A stretch of 5,876 nucleotides of DNA. It comes from a virus. The stretch lies in the IMG/VR virus record IMGVR_UViG_3300045988_022706; one strand, written 5' to 3'. The position numbers and the translations under genes are program-made. This document shows positions 1 through 5,876 of the stretch, piece after piece. Numbering within the stretch: the first letter of the stretch is position 1; every line of letters begins with the position of its first letter. The notes beneath the pieces are model-generated. The model was not told where the DNA came from. It worked only from the letters and a program-made list of their open reading frames with translations, and searched no databases.

Positions 1-55
1 GCAAGGTTGCTCAGTAGTCCGCTCATCATTTGCAGTGCGTTTGCGGTGTTTACGC
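1..55. repeat. Terminal redundancy: 1-55 is identical to 5822-5876 (55/55 nt). It marks circular closure of a 5821-nt genome rather than a biological terminal repeat.
   Basis: Direct comparison of the first and last 55 nt of the window shows them identical. An ORF (VP2) continues in frame across this junction. Confidence 0.95.
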
Positions 56-281
56 TGCTTTGGTTGCCGAATGTGGTAATACCTGTTGGCGTGCCGATTT
101 GTGTTGCACCGATTTGCTGCGGTGCTGTTACACTGCCTGTTGTGGTCTCGCTGCCTGTTGTGGTCTCGCTGCCTGCCTCTTGGCTGTTCTTGGCGCCGCT
201 TTGGTTACTGCTTGTTATGATGCCTGTTAACATGCTCAGTCCTTGCATGAGGTATGGCATAAAGCTTAATAATGTCTCCAT
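1..281 (-). CDS. VP2: 5' (N-terminal) part of the minor capsid / DNA pilot protein VP2. The longest ORF starts at the ATG at 279-281; alternative ATGs lie at 258-260, 246-248 and 231-233. It is continuous in frame with 5230..5850 through the circular junction, and codons at 30-55 are duplicated at 5851-5876. The full protein is about 290 aa.
   Basis: Manual minus-strand translation from 281 to 30 gives METLLSFMPYLMQGLSMLTGIITSSNQSGAKNSQEAGSETTGSETTGSVTAPQQIGATQIGTPTGITTFGNQKQRKHRNALQ, followed directly by MMSGLL... at position 29, which equals 5850. There is no stop for 84 codons in this frame. An AAGGA motif lies 6 nt upstream of the ATG at 231-233. Confidence 0.6.
   Translation of the reverse strand, partial: METLLSFMPYLMQGLSMLTGIITSSNQSGAKNSQEAGSETTTGSETTTGSVTAPQQIGATQIGTPTGITTFGNQSSVNTANALQMMSGLLSNL
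133..175. repeat. In-frame 18-bp tandem repeat of ctgcctgttgtggtctcg, about 2.4 copies, inside the VP2 N-terminal region. It encodes the Thr/Ser/Gly-rich stretch ...GSETTGSETTGS...
   Basis: Exact copies at 133-150 and 151-168 and a partial copy at 169-175, read directly from the sequence. Confidence 0.9.
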
Positions 282-319: not shown

Positions 320-1993
320 TTAGATTCTTTCGATGCCCGGAATGCTGTAGATGGGCATTTCGCGATACCAGTCTTCCGTGAAATAGAAGTCACACAAGAA
401 TTGGTGGCTTTTTTCGCTCGTCACTGCAATTGTTCGGTCAACGTTCTGCGTTCCTTCCTGAATCCACTCCGCCGAGAGACGCGGGAGTTTGTCATAATCG
501 TCCGCATAGTGCCATGCATCCAGTGACGTCTGATAGTTAGACCGCATTTCTCCGGTTACGTAAGAAGGCTTGTAGCGGTAATCTGCCCATGCCTCTTGAT
601 AGCCAAAGATTTCGTCATCTTCTGCCGTGCCTTGTGCATAGATTTCACGATTATACACCGGCTGTTCGCCCAGTGCTGCTAGACGCGGGTCGTAGTAGGT
701 GAATCGCCCGCCACGTGTCCACTTGGTTGCAAGCCCCTGCTGGTAGCTGTGCTCTACTCGTACCACTGCCAGTCCGATGATGTAGCCGTATTCGGTTGCT
801 GCATAGTCTACCATCTGCTTGCTGCACGTGGTCAAGCTGTATGCTGCCGTATTGCCTAGTGCCTGTCCGGTTGTCGGGTCTGTTTGGCTCGTCTGGACGA
901 CTTGGTTTACATTGATTGCGATGCGCTGACCGCCGATGTACTCAGGAATTTGAAGCCTGCTGTCTGGACTTGTTACGCCCCATGTGCCGGAAAGGAACTC
1001 GCGATAGCGCGTGCCGTTGCGTGCATCTGCCTCAAAGATGTGCTGCAGTGCGATGCTCATTCGTAAATCTGCAATGCTGATTGCGCTTACTCCGCTTAGG
1101 TCTGCTGACAGAATTCCTTGTCTTCCTGTTTCTCCGTTTGCGTCCGTTCCGATAATGTTTGCGTATTGGTTCGGATTTGGCCGCGTTGTCATGTTTTGAT
1201 TGAATATGTAATTTTTATGGCTAGCTGCACTCGCTGTGTTGAAGTAGATAGATTTACTATCTGTGTATAGGTTTCCGTCTATATCCTTTAACTGTACTGG
1301 TGCATCACCCGCTAGGCTGATTTCTACAGGGTCATTTTTTAACGGCGTTGGGAGACAGGATGTGTAATAGTCGTGGAATTTTCCGGCCTTTGCCGGAAAT
1401 CGTGCGTATGCGGTCCCTTCATTTATGTTTGTCGTCAGGCTCGGTTTGTTTAAGTAGAATTCTTTGGTTGCGTTTCCGGGATTGGGTTCTTTTCCCGCGT
1501 CATCGGTTTTTTTGAACCCTACCATTAACGGTGCTTCTAGATTTTCATCTCTGAACCATTCGTTATAAATCATGGCATATGCGCGTGCCGGCAGTGCGTT
1601 TACCTTGATTTCATTTTTGATTCCGGTTGGCAGTCCGAAATAGTCTCCTAAACTGCCACTCACTAGGCCGCTTTGGCCGCCGATTTTGCAAGTCGGTGTG
1701 CTATATTCTGTCTTTTCTGCCCAGTAGTCGGTGTCATTCTCGCCGAACATGTTCTCCCAGTGTTCCCAGAGTAGACGGCATGGAACAAAGAAGAAATAGG
1801 TGTCCATGTACGCGTTATCCATGATAGGATAGATGGGTGTACTCATGCGGATAAGGCCGTTCAGGCGTACACGTGCTGTATCACCTGGAAGCACTTCGTC
1901 ACAGTAGATGGGTACCAGTTCGCCTTCGTTGATGGTCGTTAAGAGCTGGTGGCTTCGGTCAAACTTGCTTCGCGGTCTTTCCATTCGTGGCAC
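320..1993 (-). CDS. VP1: Microviridae major capsid protein VP1 (F-like). The ORF track starts at a GTG at 1991-1993; the more likely ATG start is at 1982-1984 (MERPRSKFDRSH...).
   Basis: 557-aa ORF. Its N-terminus contains the family-typical motifs FDRSH, LVPIYCDEVLPGDT, STPIYPIMDN and YFFFVPCRLLW, and its size matches gokushovirus VP1 proteins (about 530-570 aa). Confidence 0.95.
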   Translation of the reverse strand: MPRMERPRSKFDRSHQLLTTINEGELVPIYCDEVLPGDTARVRLNGLIRMSTPIYPIMDNAYMDTYFFFVPCRLLWEHWENMFGENDTDYWAEKTEYSTPTCKIGGQSGLVSGSLGDYFGLPTGIKNEIKVNALPARAYAMIYNEWFRDENLEAPLMVGFKKTDDAGKEPNPGNATKEFYLNKPSLTTNINEGTAYARFPAKAGKFHDYYTSCLPTPLKNDPVEISLAGDAPVQLKDIDGNLYTDSKSIYFNTASAASHKNYIFNQNMTTRPNPNQYANIIGTDANGETGRQGILSADLSGVSAISIADLRMSIALQHIFEADARNGTRYREFLSGTWGVTSPDSRLQIPEYIGGQRIAINVNQVVQTSQTDPTTGQALGNTAAYSLTTCSKQMVDYAATEYGYIIGLAVVRVEHSYQQGLATKWTRGGRFTYYDPRLAALGEQPVYNREIYAQGTAEDDEIFGYQEAWADYRYKPSYVTGEMRSNYQTSLDAWHYADDYDKLPRLSAEWIQEGTQNVDRTIAVTSEKSHQFLCDFYFTEDWYREMPIYSIPGIERI

Positions 1994-2009: not shown

Positions 2010-2435
2010 TCACTGTTTCGGTTCGTTGTCTTTCACCTCTTCCTTTTTTTCTTCCTCTTTCGGCTTCGGCTGTTCGGTCTGTTGCATCTGTTTCAGCTGT
2101 TCCAGCGTTTTGTCTGCAGCCTCGGCTTTTTCGTGCATCGTCATGATATCCTTCGGCAGATTTTCGAGGTCAGTTCCTTCGGTGTATACCATGCTTTTTG
2201 CTTTGATGCTGGTGTCCCCTGCTTCCAGCCGTGCGATTGCGCTTGCAAGGTCGTAGCCCTCGCCGGCTCGCTGGATTTTCTCGTATGTGTTTTCATCCGG
2301 CTGCTCGATGTAGTCGGTAGTGCCGTTCGTTTGCTTTACTGCTTTCCACGTTGGCGCGGTCTTGCTGCCCGGATTGTTCGGCACTCTCTCGGTCGGTAGT
2401 CCATAGTATCTTACCATTGCATCAGGATTTAACAT
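2010..2435 (-). CDS. Hypothetical 141-aa protein immediately upstream of VP1. It is acidic with a Lys/Glu-rich low-complexity C-terminal tail. It may be an internal scaffolding (VP3-like) or accessory protein, but this is unassigned.
   Basis: ATG start at 2433-2435 and TGA stop at 2010-2012. It is on the same strand as all other genes, overlaps the upstream ORF by 14 nt, and ends 16 nt before VP1. Confidence 0.55.
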   Translation of the reverse strand: MLNPDAMVRYYGLPTERVPNNPGSKTAPTWKAVKQTNGTTDYIEQPDENTYEKIQRAGEGYDLASAIARLEAGDTSIKAKSMVYTEGTDLENLPKDIMTMHEKAEAADKTLEQLKQMQQTEQPKPKEEEKKEEVKDNEPKQ

Positions 2436-2709
2436 TGGTTGTCTCCTTCAGGTCGATTAGCCGTGCGATGTGTTCAGGCATTGCTTCGCTCATGTAGCCG
2501 GTTTCTGTGTCGAACTCACCCAGTTCTACGAGCGAAATATCTTCGATTTCACTCGGTTTGCTTTCGTTGGCCTTCCATCGTGCCGTTCGGACTGCCTGTG
2601 CCCTGTTGTTCTGCAGAAACGGCTGAGAGTAGCCGTTGGTCAATGCATCGTGGAATGAATAGAATTTCAGTTTCATGTTTTTCCCCTTACTCTTTGTCTT
2701 TGTTTGCAT
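2422..2709 (-). CDS. Hypothetical protein, 95 aa from the ATG at 2707-2709. The more likely start is the internal ATG at 2674-2676 (84 aa, MKLKFYSF...), which is preceded by AAGGGG at a 4-nt spacing. It contains a ...SLVELGEFDTETG... segment and may be a VP3/VP5-like accessory protein, but this is unassigned.
   Basis: The ORF is in the gene-strand orientation and is packed tightly against its neighbours with overlaps. A Shine-Dalgarno-like AAGGGG lies at 2681-2686. Confidence 0.5.
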   Translation of the reverse strand: MQTKTKSKGKNMKLKFYSFHDALTNGYSQPFLQNNRAQAVRTARWKANESKPSEIEDISLVELGEFDTETGYMSEAMPEHIARLIDLKETTNVKS

Positions 2710-2803
2710 CCTTCAGTGCGTGGTAGATTTCGTCGAGCTTTTCAAGGATGTTCATCATCAGTGCAATTGCTTCCCTAACGTCCTTGACCTTGATTAATGC
2801 CAT
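2687..2803 (-). CDS. Small 38-aa ORF (MALIKVKDVREAIALMMNILEKLDEIYHALKDANKDKE). It is predicted to be helical and is not in the ORF track because of the size cut-off.
   Basis: Manual translation gives an ATG at 2801-2803 preceded by GAAGG at a 6-nt spacing. The TAA stop at 2687-2689 sits immediately before the SD and ATG of the next gene, a pattern typical of translational coupling. Confidence 0.3.
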   Translation of the reverse strand: MALIKVKDVREAIALMMNILEKLDEIYHALKDANKDKE

Positions 2804-2833
2804 TTTACGCCTTCTTTCTTTTGTTTGTATCGT

Positions 2834-2950
2834 TTACAGCCGGATGCCGCCCCGTGATACCTTCGGTCGGACGTTGATGTTTTTTACTCGCTTGGCAGTC
2901 TGAGTAAATTTTTTCTGGTCGCCATGACCCGCTCCGCTTCTGTGTGCCAT
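2834..2950 (-). CDS. Small, highly basic 38-aa ORF (MAHRSGAGHGDQKKFTQTAKRVKNINVRPKVSRGGIRL). It is a candidate J/VP8-like DNA-binding (genome-packaging) protein.
   Basis: Manual translation gives an ATG at 2948-2950, 2 nt after the peptidase stop, with a GGGGG motif 7 nt upstream and a TAA stop at 2834-2836. The protein has 6 K, 6 R and 2 H against a single D. It is the same size as the phiX174 J protein (38 aa). It is not in the ORF track because of the size cut-off. Confidence 0.4.
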   Translation of the reverse strand: MAHRSGAGHGDQKKFTQTAKRVKNINVRPKVSRGGIRL

Positions 2951-2952
2951 TT

Positions 2953-3354
2953 TTACACCCCCTTTCTGTATTTTTTCTCGGTTCGCACATCAAAGTGCAC
3001 CCAAGTGTTGTATACGATAATGCCGCATTCATCCGGGACGATTTCATTCAGTTTGTTTGCAAGTTCTTTTGCGCTCATGCCATTGACCCGGATATCTGCT
3101 GCCATACCGCACATGTGGTAGCTGTATTTTGCTCCGTTGCATTTTTTGTTCCACTCTGGTGTTCTGTATCCGCTGTTTATGTGTACTGGCTTTCCAATTT
3201 TGTTTCTTAGAATGTCAAGTATCGACACCAAGTGGTCGTCTACATAAACCACTTGTGAACCGTCTTTACATGCAAATTCTTGTACTTTAAAGTGCTGTCC
3301 TATTTTTTTGTTTGCTTCTTTGTCCATGATATAGCATTTAATCATCTTTGTCAA
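2953..3354 (-). CDS. Peptidase M15 family zinc D-Ala-D-Ala carboxypeptidase-like cell-wall hydrolase, the likely lysis enzyme. The track ORF begins at a TTG at 3352-3354; the more likely start is the ATG at 3343-3345, preceded by AAAGGAGA, giving a 130-aa protein.
   Basis: The protein carries the motifs F-KVQEFACKDG, SGYRTPEWN, HMCGMAADI and WVHFD, which are characteristic of the peptidase_M15_3 zinc-binding H/D/H triad. Confidence 0.85.
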   Translation of the reverse strand: MTKMIKCYIMDKEANKKIGQHFKVQEFACKDGSQVVYVDDHLVSILDILRNKIGKPVHINSGYRTPEWNKKCNGAKYSYHMCGMAADIRVNGMSAKELANKLNEIVPDECGIIVYNTWVHFDVRTEKKYRKGV

Positions 3355-3535
3355 TCTCCTTTTCGGTAAAACATGTTCCTACTTTGCGGACTTGGTATAA
3401 AGAGTAGATTCCTGGATTTGCTTCTGCGTATTCTTTGAATGTTTTCTTTGCTGCTTTTGGTTCTGCTGTGACTAGTCGGATGGTGGTCACTTTTCCGTTT
3501 TTTTCTAGCTTTCGGATTTCATATACGTGCATCAT
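3338..3535 (-). CDS. Hypothetical 65-aa protein, the first gene downstream of the promoter. Its stop overlaps the peptidase start in the sequence ATGATTAAATG.
   Basis: ATG start at 3533-3535 preceded by AAAGGAAGG at a spacing of about 8 nt. It is on the coding strand and immediately downstream of a consensus promoter. No recognisable domain was seen. Confidence 0.5.
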   Translation of the reverse strand: MMHVYEIRKLEKNGKVTTIRLVTAEPKAAKKTFKEYAEANPGIYSLYQVRKVGTCFTEKEIDKDD

Positions 3536-3562: not shown

Positions 3563-3591
3563 ATTTTATCATTTTTTTTAAAAAAAGTCAA
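3563..3591 (-). promoter_or_regulatory. Sigma70-type promoter on the viral strand: -35 TTGACT (3586-3591), a 17-nt spacer, and an extended -10 TGATAAAAT (-10 hexamer 3563-3568, TG at 3570-3571). It is preceded by an A8 UP-like tract (3593-3600).
   Basis: The motif was read directly on the reverse complement. The spacing and the hexamers match the consensus at 5/6 and 5/6 positions, and an extended -10 TG is present. The predicted transcription start is about 20 nt before the ATG of the 65-aa ORF. Confidence 0.6.
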
Positions 3592-3724: not shown

Positions 3725-4729
3725 TCATGCTTTTGGTTCACGCCACTTTTGCTTTAGCTTGTCTTTTTCTTTTTGAATGTTGAGATACGTTTCGTAATCT
3801 ACGCTTGTGCTCTGTTCGAGATTGACTAAACTTTGTATTGCGCTGCGTCTACGTTTGGCTCTAACCTCTCTCAGCTCGTCAGAATGTGCTCTAAAATAGC
3901 TTTCTGTGTCTTGGCTGGTATCTTTATCTAGAATCTTATCAAAATAGCGTGGAGGCCTTTTCTCGCGTCCTCCTGCGCATATGATGCTATCTGTTTTTAG
4001 GATTTCATCTTTGTGTTCGTTTAGATACTTTTCGCCGATGCCTTTTGACATGATTCTAAATTCAGGTTCTCTACCTTCCATCCAGTATTTTGCCGCTTGC
4101 TCTGCACCTATGGCTTTTTTGTTGACGTACTGTGCCACGTATGCAAAACTTCCTGGTTGTGCTGGTGAAAAGTCTATCATGCCTTTGCCCCAGATTTTTT
4201 GTAACCATTCCGACTTGAAATAGCTATTTCCTTTTTGGTTTTTATACCATTGTGCATCCGGTGGCTTTAATCCGAATACTATTGCATGATAGTGCGGTCT
4301 TTTTGTTCTGTCGCCGTATTCAGCCGCTAGGAAGTATTTTATCGGTTTCTTGTATGCTTTTCGTAGCCGTTTTATAAACAGCTGTACGTCTCGCTTATTC
4401 ACTGTCTGGCTTTGAATGCTTCTGTAGCCTTTGAGAATCTCGCCGTATGGGATGTGCTCATCATCATATGTCAGTGTTAGAAAAATCACATCGTCCCACT
4501 CTTTGGCCTCTAGCTCTATTCTGGTTGCCCATTGTTCAGCCATTTGTTTCCGGCAATATTCGCACTTACCACATGGTAACAATGCGAATTTTCCTTTTTT
4601 GATTCCGTCCATGATGTCTGCTTGCAGTCCTTGCTTGGATAGGTTTTCTAGACTTCCCCACAGTTGTGGTTTTTTCGTGTCCATCTGAAATACTAATGGT
4701 TTTGTACATGGCATTTTTGTTACCGGCAC
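3725..4729 (-). CDS. VP4: Microviridae replication initiation protein VP4 (A-like HUH rolling-circle endonuclease). The track start is a GTG at 4727-4729; an ATG at 4712-4714 is an alternative start.
   Basis: The 334-aa protein carries a C-x2-C-x2-C motif in CGKCEYC, motif I FLTLTYDD, the HUH motif PHYHAIVFG, and the double-tyrosine motif YVAQYVNKK. Confidence 0.93.
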   Translation of the reverse strand: MPVTKMPCTKPLVFQMDTKKPQLWGSLENLSKQGLQADIMDGIKKGKFALLPCGKCEYCRKQMAEQWATRIELEAKEWDDVIFLTLTYDDEHIPYGEILKGYRSIQSQTVNKRDVQLFIKRLRKAYKKPIKYFLAAEYGDRTKRPHYHAIVFGLKPPDAQWYKNQKGNSYFKSEWLQKIWGKGMIDFSPAQPGSFAYVAQYVNKKAIGAEQAAKYWMEGREPEFRIMSKGIGEKYLNEHKDEILKTDSIICAGGREKRPPRYFDKILDKDTSQDTESYFRAHSDELREVRAKRRRSAIQSLVNLEQSTSVDYETYLNIQKEKDKLKQKWREPKA

Positions 4730-4756
4730 AAGCTTCCTTGTCTATCTTGTGCCGGT
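4722..4756. promoter_or_regulatory. 11-bp perfect inverted repeat ACCGGCACAAG / CTTGTGCCGGT with a 13-nt spacer, straddling the annotated VP4 start codon. The SD-like AAGGAAG of the mRNA falls in the loop.
   Basis: 4722-4732 is the reverse complement of 4746-4756. A regulatory role in VP4 translation or transcription is inferred. Confidence 0.4.
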
Positions 4757-4790
4757 TGACACCTCGCTTTCTTTTTATATTAACTTGTTG

Positions 4791-4808
4791 TAGTAGTAGT
4801 AGTAGTAG
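4791..4808. repeat. (TAG)6 trinucleotide microsatellite, which reads (CTA)6 on the viral strand, in the region upstream of VP4.
   Basis: The sequence tagtagtagtagtagtag was read directly. Confidence 0.9.
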
Positions 4809-4977
4809 TGTTGAAAGTGTTGAAAACTCGTTTTTTTAACGTTATTACGTTTAATTATTGCCTTTTTCTATGTTGAAAACTTTGTTGAAAACTTGTTGAA
4901 TTGTTGAATGTTCGTCATTTTGACGAATTTCTTTGTGCAACTTGTTGTTGAAAACCTGTTGAAAGTGTTGAAAACTC
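4809..4977. repeat. Array of nine GTTGAA(A/T) iteron-like repeats in three clusters (starts 4810, 4819; 4872, 4884, 4895, 4903; 4947, 4958, 4967) with spacings of roughly 8-12 bp. It is bounded by a 21-bp perfect direct repeat TGTTGAAAGTGTTGAAAACTC (4809-4829 and 4957-4977). A 7-bp palindrome TTCGTCA-TTT-TGACGAA (4911-4927) sits between clusters.
   Basis: All repeat copies were located by direct reading. The near-helical phasing and A-tract content suggest protein-binding iterons and/or intrinsically curved DNA, which would fit an origin or control region. Confidence 0.8.
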
Positions 4978-5017
4978 AAGTTTTCCACATTCTCTATTTT
5001 CTGGATTATTGTTTCTT

Positions 5018-5054
5018 TGCGCGTGTGTGCACGTTTCGTGCGCGCGCGCGTATA
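5018..5054. repeat. Two strictly alternating purine-pyrimidine tracts, tgcgcgtgtgtgcacgt (5018-5034) and gtgcgcgcgcgcgtata (5038-5054, including (GC)5G). These are Z-DNA-prone and CpG-rich.
   Basis: Read directly. Both tracts are at least 17 nt of uninterrupted purine/pyrimidine alternation. Confidence 0.8.
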
Positions 5055-5115
5055 GTGATAATAGACTGTTTGCCTTACTGCAGCGGCAGCCACCCGCGTA
5101 GGGGGGCGTGACGCA

Positions 5116-5148
5116 AGGGGGGTCGCAAACCAATCTTGCGACCCCCCT
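5116..5148. other. Perfect 13-bp GC-rich hairpin AGGGGGGTCGCAA-(ACCAATC)-TTGCGACCCCCCT. A second G6 tract lies upstream at 5101-5106. It sits in the VP2 3' region and noncoding DNA, and is a candidate ssDNA structural element (complementary-strand origin, packaging signal or transcript 3' structure).
   Basis: 5116-5128 is the exact reverse complement of 5136-5148, with a 7-nt loop. The hairpin is not followed by a U-tract on either strand. Confidence 0.6.
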
Positions 5149-5229
5149 CTTCTATACATGATTTTGTTTTGGTTGCCGCTTGTCTGGTGTCCCCTGTGTT
5201 GGGGAAACCTTAGCTTTGCGCGGAAAGGG

Positions 5230-5876
5230 TTAATCTCCTTTGTACGGTTCTCCAGATTTGAACCCATCAATTAGTTTGCGTCTTCTTGCTGTCTTGTCGA
5301 TAGTATCTTTAGCTACTTTGTCAATGCCTCCTTTGGCTGCTTTACCAGCCTTTTTTACTGCGTCTTTCGCTGCTTTGCCTGCTCCTGCAAGGCCTGCGCC
5401 TAACTTGTTAGCTGCATAGCTGTACTGTTGCGCCTGTTTTGCGCTTGAGGTTGCCAGCTCGCTTGCTGCCTGTTCCCAGCTTTTCGCATTCTTAAACTGT
5501 TTTGCGCTGGTGGCCTGTTTTGCCAGCTGTAAGTATTTGTCTGCTAGCTCTGCTGTGTTGTTGCCGTATTCGTACATAGCGCTTACACTTGCAGCCTGTG
5601 CGCTCTGCTGGTTATAACGTTGGTTTCCAATGCTTGCTGATGCTCCGCTTGTTGACGCTGTTGCACCGTTGGTTGCTGCCAGAATAGGATTGATTCCCGC
5701 TGCAATCATGTCCTTCACGGTATCTTGATACGCTGTCCCGCGCATTTCCTTCTGAAATGCTCGTTCCGCTGCTGCTTCTGCGCTGTTGTACTTCTTGGCG
5801 CTTGCTTGGCTTCCAGCATTTGCAAGGTTGCTCAGTAGTCCGCTCATCATTTGCAGTGCGTTTGCGGTGTTTACGC
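5230..5876 (-). CDS. VP2: Minor capsid / DNA pilot protein VP2: the C-terminal 206 aa plus 26 nt of upstream in-frame sequence. The ORF continues past the window end into positions 56-281 through circular closure.
   Basis: The conserved pilot-protein block ...AAAERAFQKEMRGTAYQDTVKDMIAAGINPILA... is present, together with Gly/Ala/Lys-rich low-complexity repeats such as AGKAAKDAVKKAGKAAKGG. These features, and the gene's position after VP1, are typical of microvirus VP2. Confidence 0.85.
   Translation of the reverse strand, partial: VNTANALQMMSGLLSNLANAGSQASAKKYNSAEAAAERAFQKEMRGTAYQDTVKDMIAAGINPILAATNGATASTSGASASIGNQRYNQQSAQAASVSAMYEYGNNTAELADKYLQLAKQATSAKQFKNAKSWEQAASELATSSAKQAQQYSYAANKLGAGLAGAGKAAKDAVKKAGKAAKGGIDKVAKDTIDKTARRRKLIDGFKSGEPYKGD

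Follow-up and report, generated by a model that had tools for sequence, protein, structure and literature searches.

Directly behind a putative endolysin gene, positions 2834 to 2950 of the window (the whole stretch of DNA that was analyzed, 5876 bases) hold an open reading frame of 38 codons, which raises the question of whether so short a frame is a gene and, if it is, which protein it encodes. The original prediction was a J/VP8-like DNA-binding protein that gene callers had missed. We assign the frame to the VP8 (ORF8) gene of a ~5.8-kb human-gut-type gokushovirus, with a probability of about 0.93.

The window was one circular microvirus genome, 5821 nt long with a 55-nt terminal redundancy (bases 1 to 55 are repeated as 5822 to 5876). 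Every recognizable gene was carried on the minus strand (Pfam, PHROGs). VP1, VP2, VP3, VP4, and VP5 were all identified there (Pfam, PHROGs), on the same strand as the 38-aa ORF, which identifies the genome that carries it as a gokushovirus genome. The gene order on this strand was the VP2 pilot protein (281..1, then 5821..5230), the VP4 replication initiator (4729..3725), a 65-aa ORF (3535..3338), an M15_3 peptidase, a putative endolysin (3354..2953; Pfam PF08291 Peptidase_M15_3, E = 1.2e-21; phrog_894 endolysin, E = 3e-39), the 38-aa ORF (2950..2834), a second 38-aa ORF (2803..2687), VP5 (2709 or 2676..2422; Pfam Phage_ORF5), the VP3 scaffold (2435..2010), and the VP1 major capsid protein (1993..320; Pfam Phage_F, E = 2e-146; phrog_514, E = 4e-198). 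The closest deposited genomes were the human-gut gokushoviruses KX513876.1 and MT121961.1 (~87 to 88% identical in nucleotides across 90% of the genome), and the closest records carry the classification Gokushovirinae.

Two features lie away from the locus. VP2 was 290 aa long when read across the window junction, versus 206 aa in the ORF list, and in its N-terminal part an 18-nt stretch was repeated exactly in tandem (133-150 and 151-168), with a partial third copy behind it (whole repeat, 133..175), so that GSETTT is encoded twice. The non-coding interval between VP2 and VP4 (4730..5230), a possible origin or regulatory region, was rich in repeats. A motif of the GTTGAAAAC/GTTGAAAGT type recurred there in several direct copies at 4809-4991 (families D1 and D2), a (TAG)6 run lay at ~4793-4810 and an alternating GC tract at ~5040-5050, and a 13-bp stem without mismatches enclosed a 7-nt loop at 5116-5148 (AGGGGGGTCGCAA...TTGCGACCCCCCT).

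The 38-aa ORF itself (2834..2950, minus strand) began with ATG and ended with TAA (2834-2836), and its product was MAHRSGAGHGDQKKFTQTAKRVKNINVRPKVSRGGIRL. The peptidase TAA occupied 2953-2955, and the ATG of the ORF began 2 nt later; a Shine-Dalgarno-like GGGGG (2958-2962, minus strand) lay 7 nt upstream of this ATG, within the last peptidase codons (the sequence reads ...AAAGGGGGTGTAAAA, then ATG). The coordinates, the translation, and the GGGGG motif all agreed with those first proposed for the locus, and the composition did so in part. Fourteen basic residues and one acidic residue had been reported; the single acidic residue (D11) was there, while the basic residues came to 5 K and 5 R, 10 strongly basic in all, plus 2 His (12 at most), with a calculated pI of ~12. 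No other ATG-initiated ORF of 25 aa or more in the window was as positively charged. Its length and basicity fell within those of the VP8 family (~38 to 44 aa, strongly basic), with a charge near the low end of the family. Three parts could be distinguished along the peptide: a basic N-terminal and middle arm with 9 of the 10 K/R residues (codons 2 to 32; 2855..2947, minus strand), an F15-x-x-T-A core inside it (2894-2908, minus strand), and a C-terminal RGGIRL, the conserved motif of the family (codons 33 to 38; 2837..2854, minus strand).

With stop codons at 3.7% on the minus strand, a 38-codon stretch would stay open by chance with p ~0.24, and 87 ORFs in the window were 25 aa or longer; an open frame alone was therefore not beyond chance, and the evidence for a gene has to come from conservation. 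Relatives were fetched via the neighboring VP5 protein and not with the 38-aa peptide, to avoid circularity, which gave 61 IMG/VR loci. A full-length, uninterrupted copy of the ORF was found upstream of VP5 in 54 of them. Four distant loci (L064 to L067), with a VP5 just 32 to 34% identical, carried a VP8-like ORF ending in RGG[FYI]RL, and in the remaining three, which lacked VP8, the contig edge was at most 300 nt upstream. Short basic ORFs at the syntenic position in related microviruses, named in the original prediction as a way to check it, were thus recovered with VP5 as the anchor.

The pattern of substitution was that of a coding sequence. Variable sites, counted over 53 distinct nucleotide sequences, numbered 17, 10, and 38 (of 38 codons) at codon positions 1, 2, and 3. 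The pooled pN/pS was 0.106 in the VP8 frame and 1.5 to 2.7 in four other frames; the codon-aligned antisense frame gave 0.26, which is expected because it shares its wobble positions with the VP8 frame. The start was ATG in 53 of 55 sequences, the stop was TAA or TAG in all 55, and a purine run (GGAG, GGGAG, or GGGGG) stood 6 to 9 nt upstream in every relative, whatever gene came before. An Rfam scan of the window found no RNA family, and there was therefore no sign of an RNA element behind the conservation. The 38-aa ORF codes for a protein, evolves under strong purifying selection, and has its own conserved ribosome-binding site; the prediction had been made to depend on conservation of this frame in relatives, and the frame was intact in the 54 VP5-anchored loci at the pN/pS given above.

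That the frame is an accident of the peptidase-VP5 spacer and yields no product is a reading to which we give practically no weight. The chance of an open stretch of this length and the many other ORFs in the window speak for it, but it leaves unexplained the codon-position pattern, the low pN/pS, the Shine-Dalgarno sequence kept in relatives, the 803 records matched by tblastn, in which the listed names are those of microviruses, and profile matches that extend to a structurally observed virion protein. We rejected it, as the conservation data refute it.

A second contender for the same bases is an 80-aa ORF (2805..3047, minus strand), which, as the ORF list confirmed, overlaps the peptidase gene by 95 nt in another frame. 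It could be the true gene, overprinted on the end of the peptidase, with the 38-aa frame merely incidental: it is the longer of the two, starts with ATG, is open in the window and in three relatives (L022, L039, and L040), and overprinted genes are known in Microviridae. In 51 of 54 relatives, however, the frame is interrupted by stops, and its start codon is usually missing. Over the region that it has in common with the 38-aa ORF, its pN/pS was ~2.0, versus 0.106 for the latter, and it had no PHROG match and a sub-threshold Pfam match only. An overprinted 80-aa gene is accordingly most improbable and was rejected, and the preference for the 38-aa ORF expressed in the original prediction was borne out.

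Given a coding gene of 38 codons, its family was sought by profile. The peptide matched one PHROG, phrog_10695 (39 positions, labeled "unknown function"; E = 7.4e-7), which was also matched by the VP8 of Escherichia phage EC6098 (1.6e-10), ORF8 of Chlamydia phage Chp2 (5.8e-19), ORF8 of Bdellovibrio phage phiMH2K (8e-8), and the proteins entered in GenBank as "DNA binding protein" for Dulem virus 202 and bajarodmic virus 589. A profile built from seven sequences, the window peptide among them, matched the whole of PDB chain 8des_E (39 aa, titled "Putative DNA binding protein") with an E value of 1.9e-7; the sequence of this chain is that of the translated EC6098 vp8 gene, and it ends in an identical MRGGIRL. 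BLASTP of the window peptide against EC6098 VP8 gave an E value of 1e-4. SpV4 ORF8 (chain 9cgm_0, "DNA binding protein ORF8") was matched weakly (E = 0.44 with the single sequence and 1.3 with the profile), and SpV4 VP8 fell outside phrog_10695 in the PHROG search. Pfam has no VP8 family, and the window peptide had no match there at E values up to 10.

In an alignment with the VP8 proteins of Dulem virus, bajarodmic virus, Chp2, and phiMH2K, residues R33, G34, G35, I36, and R37 were invariant, as was F15, in a T/A-rich core whose T and A were partly conserved. The C-terminal RGGIR[L/F] was common to the aligned VP8 proteins, and residues 33 to 38 of the window peptide carry the family signature RGG-x-R-[L/F]. 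A tblastn search with the peptide against 50,697 phage records matched 803, of which 304 were matched at no less than 80% coverage, and the ten most frequent organism names among the matches were all those of microviruses. Judged by its sequence, the product of the 38-aa ORF is a member of the gokushovirus VP8 family; the proposal of a VP8-like DNA-binding protein is upheld by phrog_10695, by the profile match to 8des_E, and by the common C terminus.

The J half of the proposal fared differently. J of phiX174 matched Pfam PF04726 Microvir_J (1.7e-16) and phrog_2354 ("DNA condensation"), whereas neither the window peptide nor the reference VP8 proteins matched Microvir_J or phrog_2354 in the Pfam and PHROG searches, and hhalign of the VP8 profile against J returned a probability of 1.7%. 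Homology to phiX174 J was rejected on these results. The sensitive profile search that had been suggested against J and VP8 thus found VP8 and not J. Because there was no profile match and the hhalign probability was so low, the window VP8 is a functional analogue of J and not a member of the J family, which agrees with the report that just four C-terminal residues are structurally conserved between VP8 and J (PMC11281519). The likeness to J that was first claimed holds for size, basicity, and, by analogy, proposed function; it does not hold for sequence. The phiMH2K ORF8 record is worded as "putative DNA binding protein" and "similar to bacteriophage phiX174 J protein."

The surroundings of VP8 varied more than VP8 did. 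Among close relatives, the gene upstream was an M15 peptidase in ~17 and an ORF of ~71 aa in ~7, and there was no long ORF in the others; VP8 was kept in all. The ~71-aa ORF (MKTWNARDQ...ELIRREYNNGT; loci of the L007 to L062 set) is unrelated to the peptidase, and its end overlaps the VP8 start. In these comparisons, the VP4-VP8 interval behaves as an accessory-gene insertion site; M15 peptidases have been described in human-gut gokushoviruses (PMC3394797). The 65-aa ORF in the same interval overlaps the start of the peptidase gene and had 45 to 93% identity in 12 relatives, with no Pfam or PHROG family match.

VP8 is part of a same-strand run of the 65-aa ORF, M15 peptidase, VP8, second 38-aa ORF, VP5, VP3, and VP1, and it is probably translated from a polycistronic mRNA. 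The nearest candidate start site is a strong sigma-70-like promoter match found by consensus scan only (TTGACT-17-TAAAAT with TG; 3591..3563, minus strand), located just upstream of the 65-aa ORF in an A/T-rich tract. Since VP8 has its own Shine-Dalgarno sequence and a gap of 2 nt separates its start from the peptidase stop, the two genes are probably co-transcribed and may be translationally coupled.

Between VP8 and VP5, the second small ORF (2687..2803, minus strand) encodes 38 aa, MALIKVKDVREAIALMMNILEKLDEIYHALKDANKDKE, with 7 K/R and 8 D/E and a helical look. It was intact in 48 VP5-anchored relatives, with variable sites of 19, 6, and 32 at the three codon positions and a pN/pS of 0.113, versus 1.0 to 1.7 in other frames. 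By tblastn it matched 31 GenBank microvirus records, nearly all of which leave it unannotated, and it had no significant Pfam or PHROG family. This pattern makes it a probable small gene, so far undescribed, of the clade to which the window belongs. The VP5 gene behind it was listed from an ATG at 2709, yet its matches to Pfam and PHROGs start at residues 12 to 17; the TAA of the second ORF (2687-2689) is followed by GGGG and then by an ATG at 2676 (MKLKFYSF...), a pattern kept in relatives, and VP5 probably starts at 2676.

What VP8 would do in the virion can be drawn from homologues of known structure. The contact between VP8 and VP1 inside the particle is known from cryo-EM of SpV4 and EC6098 (PMC11281519). 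In the 2.5-Å virion of SpV4, VP8 lies along the inside of the capsid; its last residue is buried in a hydrophobic pocket of VP1 close to the 2-fold axis, and residues 33 to 38 and 14 to 20 make further contacts (PMC11281519). The N-terminal 14 residues run into the capsid interior and are ordered in full capsids only, which the authors took as a sign of DNA binding; empty capsids also show VP8, so that binding to the capsid is independent of DNA (PMC11281519). For EC6098, the same report describes the C-terminal 10 residues of VP8 as ordered, and the C-terminal seven residues of the SpV4 and EC6098 proteins as superposing (PMC11281519). The C termini of VP8 and J share one buried area (PMC11281519). 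VP8/J has elsewhere been described as a conserved, charge-mitigating ssDNA-binding protein of 38 to 39 residues that replaces the internal scaffolding protein at genome loading (PMC11980548).

Judging from the homologues in SpV4 and EC6098 and from the paradigm of phiX174 J, some 60 copies of VP8 would be packaged with the ssDNA genome. The RGGIRL end would insert in a hydrophobic pocket that VP1, the presumed binding partner, offers on its inner face, and we infer that it is the capsid-anchoring end in this phage, which is known from its sequence alone. The basic arm, made up of the N-terminal and middle residues (10 K/R in the peptide, net +9), would contact the ssDNA and partly neutralize it, codons 2 to 32 thus making up the putative ssDNA-contacting part. 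VP8 would in this manner tether the genome to the capsid and, as the genome is packaged, replace VP3, the internal scaffolding protein. Both the binding of ssDNA and the need for VP8 in packaging are suggested by composition, homologues, and analogues.

How much of the genome such a peptide could neutralize depends on its charge. At 60 copies, the net charge of +9 corresponds to 0.093 positive charges per nt, the lowest of the eight VP8/J proteins compared (others, 0.11 to 0.25; phiX174 J, 0.134 by the same count), and the 5.8-kb genome exceeds those of cultured gokushoviruses (4.4 to 4.6 kb) by ~25%. With the lowest charge per nt, the window VP8 can therefore neutralize less DNA than the VP8 of cultured relatives. 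A true VP8 homologue might then act mainly as an anchor in the capsid interior or as a scaffold-displacing peptide, with neutralization left to other components, such as capsid-protein termini, VP2, or cations. The Gly/His-rich N terminus (AHRSGAGHGDQ), the conserved Asp, and the presence of VP8 in SpV4 empty capsids (PMC11281519) fit such a division of labor, as do the low net charge and the large genome. Of the 38 residues, 10 are nevertheless K/R, the pI is ~12, and at only ~0.13 charges per nt phiX174 J makes the difference one of degree; we regard a mainly anchoring VP8 as unlikely. A bolder version, in which VP8 of the peptidase-carrying 5.8-kb clade has shed part of its neutralizing role and condensation or packaging involves an extra small protein not yet described for Microviridae, draws on the weakest charge among the VP8/J proteins together with the adjoining, equally conserved, unannotated 38-aa ORF (2687..2803); it is speculative, and we hold it improbable. 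The reading retained is that of a VP8 that would both anchor to the capsid and contact the genome.

VP8 is an already known core gene that was left unannotated here. Enterogokushoviruses have six core genes, of which it is one (PMC7062461), and it is conserved across gokushoviral subfamilies and was catalogued in large-scale surveys (PMC9239249). Even so, nothing was annotated under the VP8 match in 25 of the best 60 GenBank records (of 803), including the two closest genomes, KX513876.1 and MT121961.1, in which the peptide is 92 to 95% identical; the expectation that gene callers miss this ORF was therefore well founded. In PP511406.1 and PQ006791.1, the annotation over the VP8 ORF is "DNA binding protein." The same words are attached to VP5 by PHROGs (phrog_1670) and PMC3394797, while phrog_10695, the true VP8 family, is the one labeled as being of "unknown function," and this clash of labels could mislead automated annotation. 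The significance of the VP8 call is one of annotation quality: it completes the canonical set of VP1 to VP5 plus VP8, it removes a spurious overprinted gene of 80 aa, and it shows that an accessory cassette (the peptidase or other small ORFs) is inserted upstream of VP8 and leaves that gene undisturbed. It implies no new biology.

Compared with known systems, the window VP8 resembles J of the Bullavirinae in size (38 aa in phiX174), strong basicity, and a hydrophobic C-terminal residue (the terminal Leu in the window VP8). Published structures of other phages put the C termini of J and VP8 in the same buried capsid-protein pocket, and the same role in packaging and charge neutralization has been proposed; the two differ in that J has no detectable sequence homology to the window VP8. 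With the VP8 family (EC6098 VP8, PDB 8DES chain E; Chp2 ORF8; phiMH2K ORF8; SpV4 ORF8, PDB 9CGM), it has in common a length of 38 to 44 aa, a pI of ~12, the conserved F-x-x-T core, the RGGIR[L/F] end, and a strand shared with VP1 to VP5, but it has the fewest basic residues (10 K/R versus 12 to 19) and one conserved acidic residue. The VP8 genes of Dulem virus 202 (XCD03966.1) and bajarodmic virus 589 (XHH68601.1) encode proteins 56 to 64% identical over the full length, starting with M-A-H-R and ending in RGGIRL, and their synteny is alike (Rep, VP8, a nonstructural protein [VP5], scaffold, and capsid), although the M15 peptidase is not immediately upstream of VP8 there. In the window and in these two viruses, the gene lies between VP4 and VP5, whereas it is found between VP2 and VP4 in EC6098, between VP3 and ORF4 in Chp2, and between VP5 and VP4 in phiMH2K; unlike in the VP8 systems compared, the gene immediately before it in the window is that of an accessory M15 peptidase. 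The differing position in the gene order and the low charge leave the assignment to VP8 unchanged.
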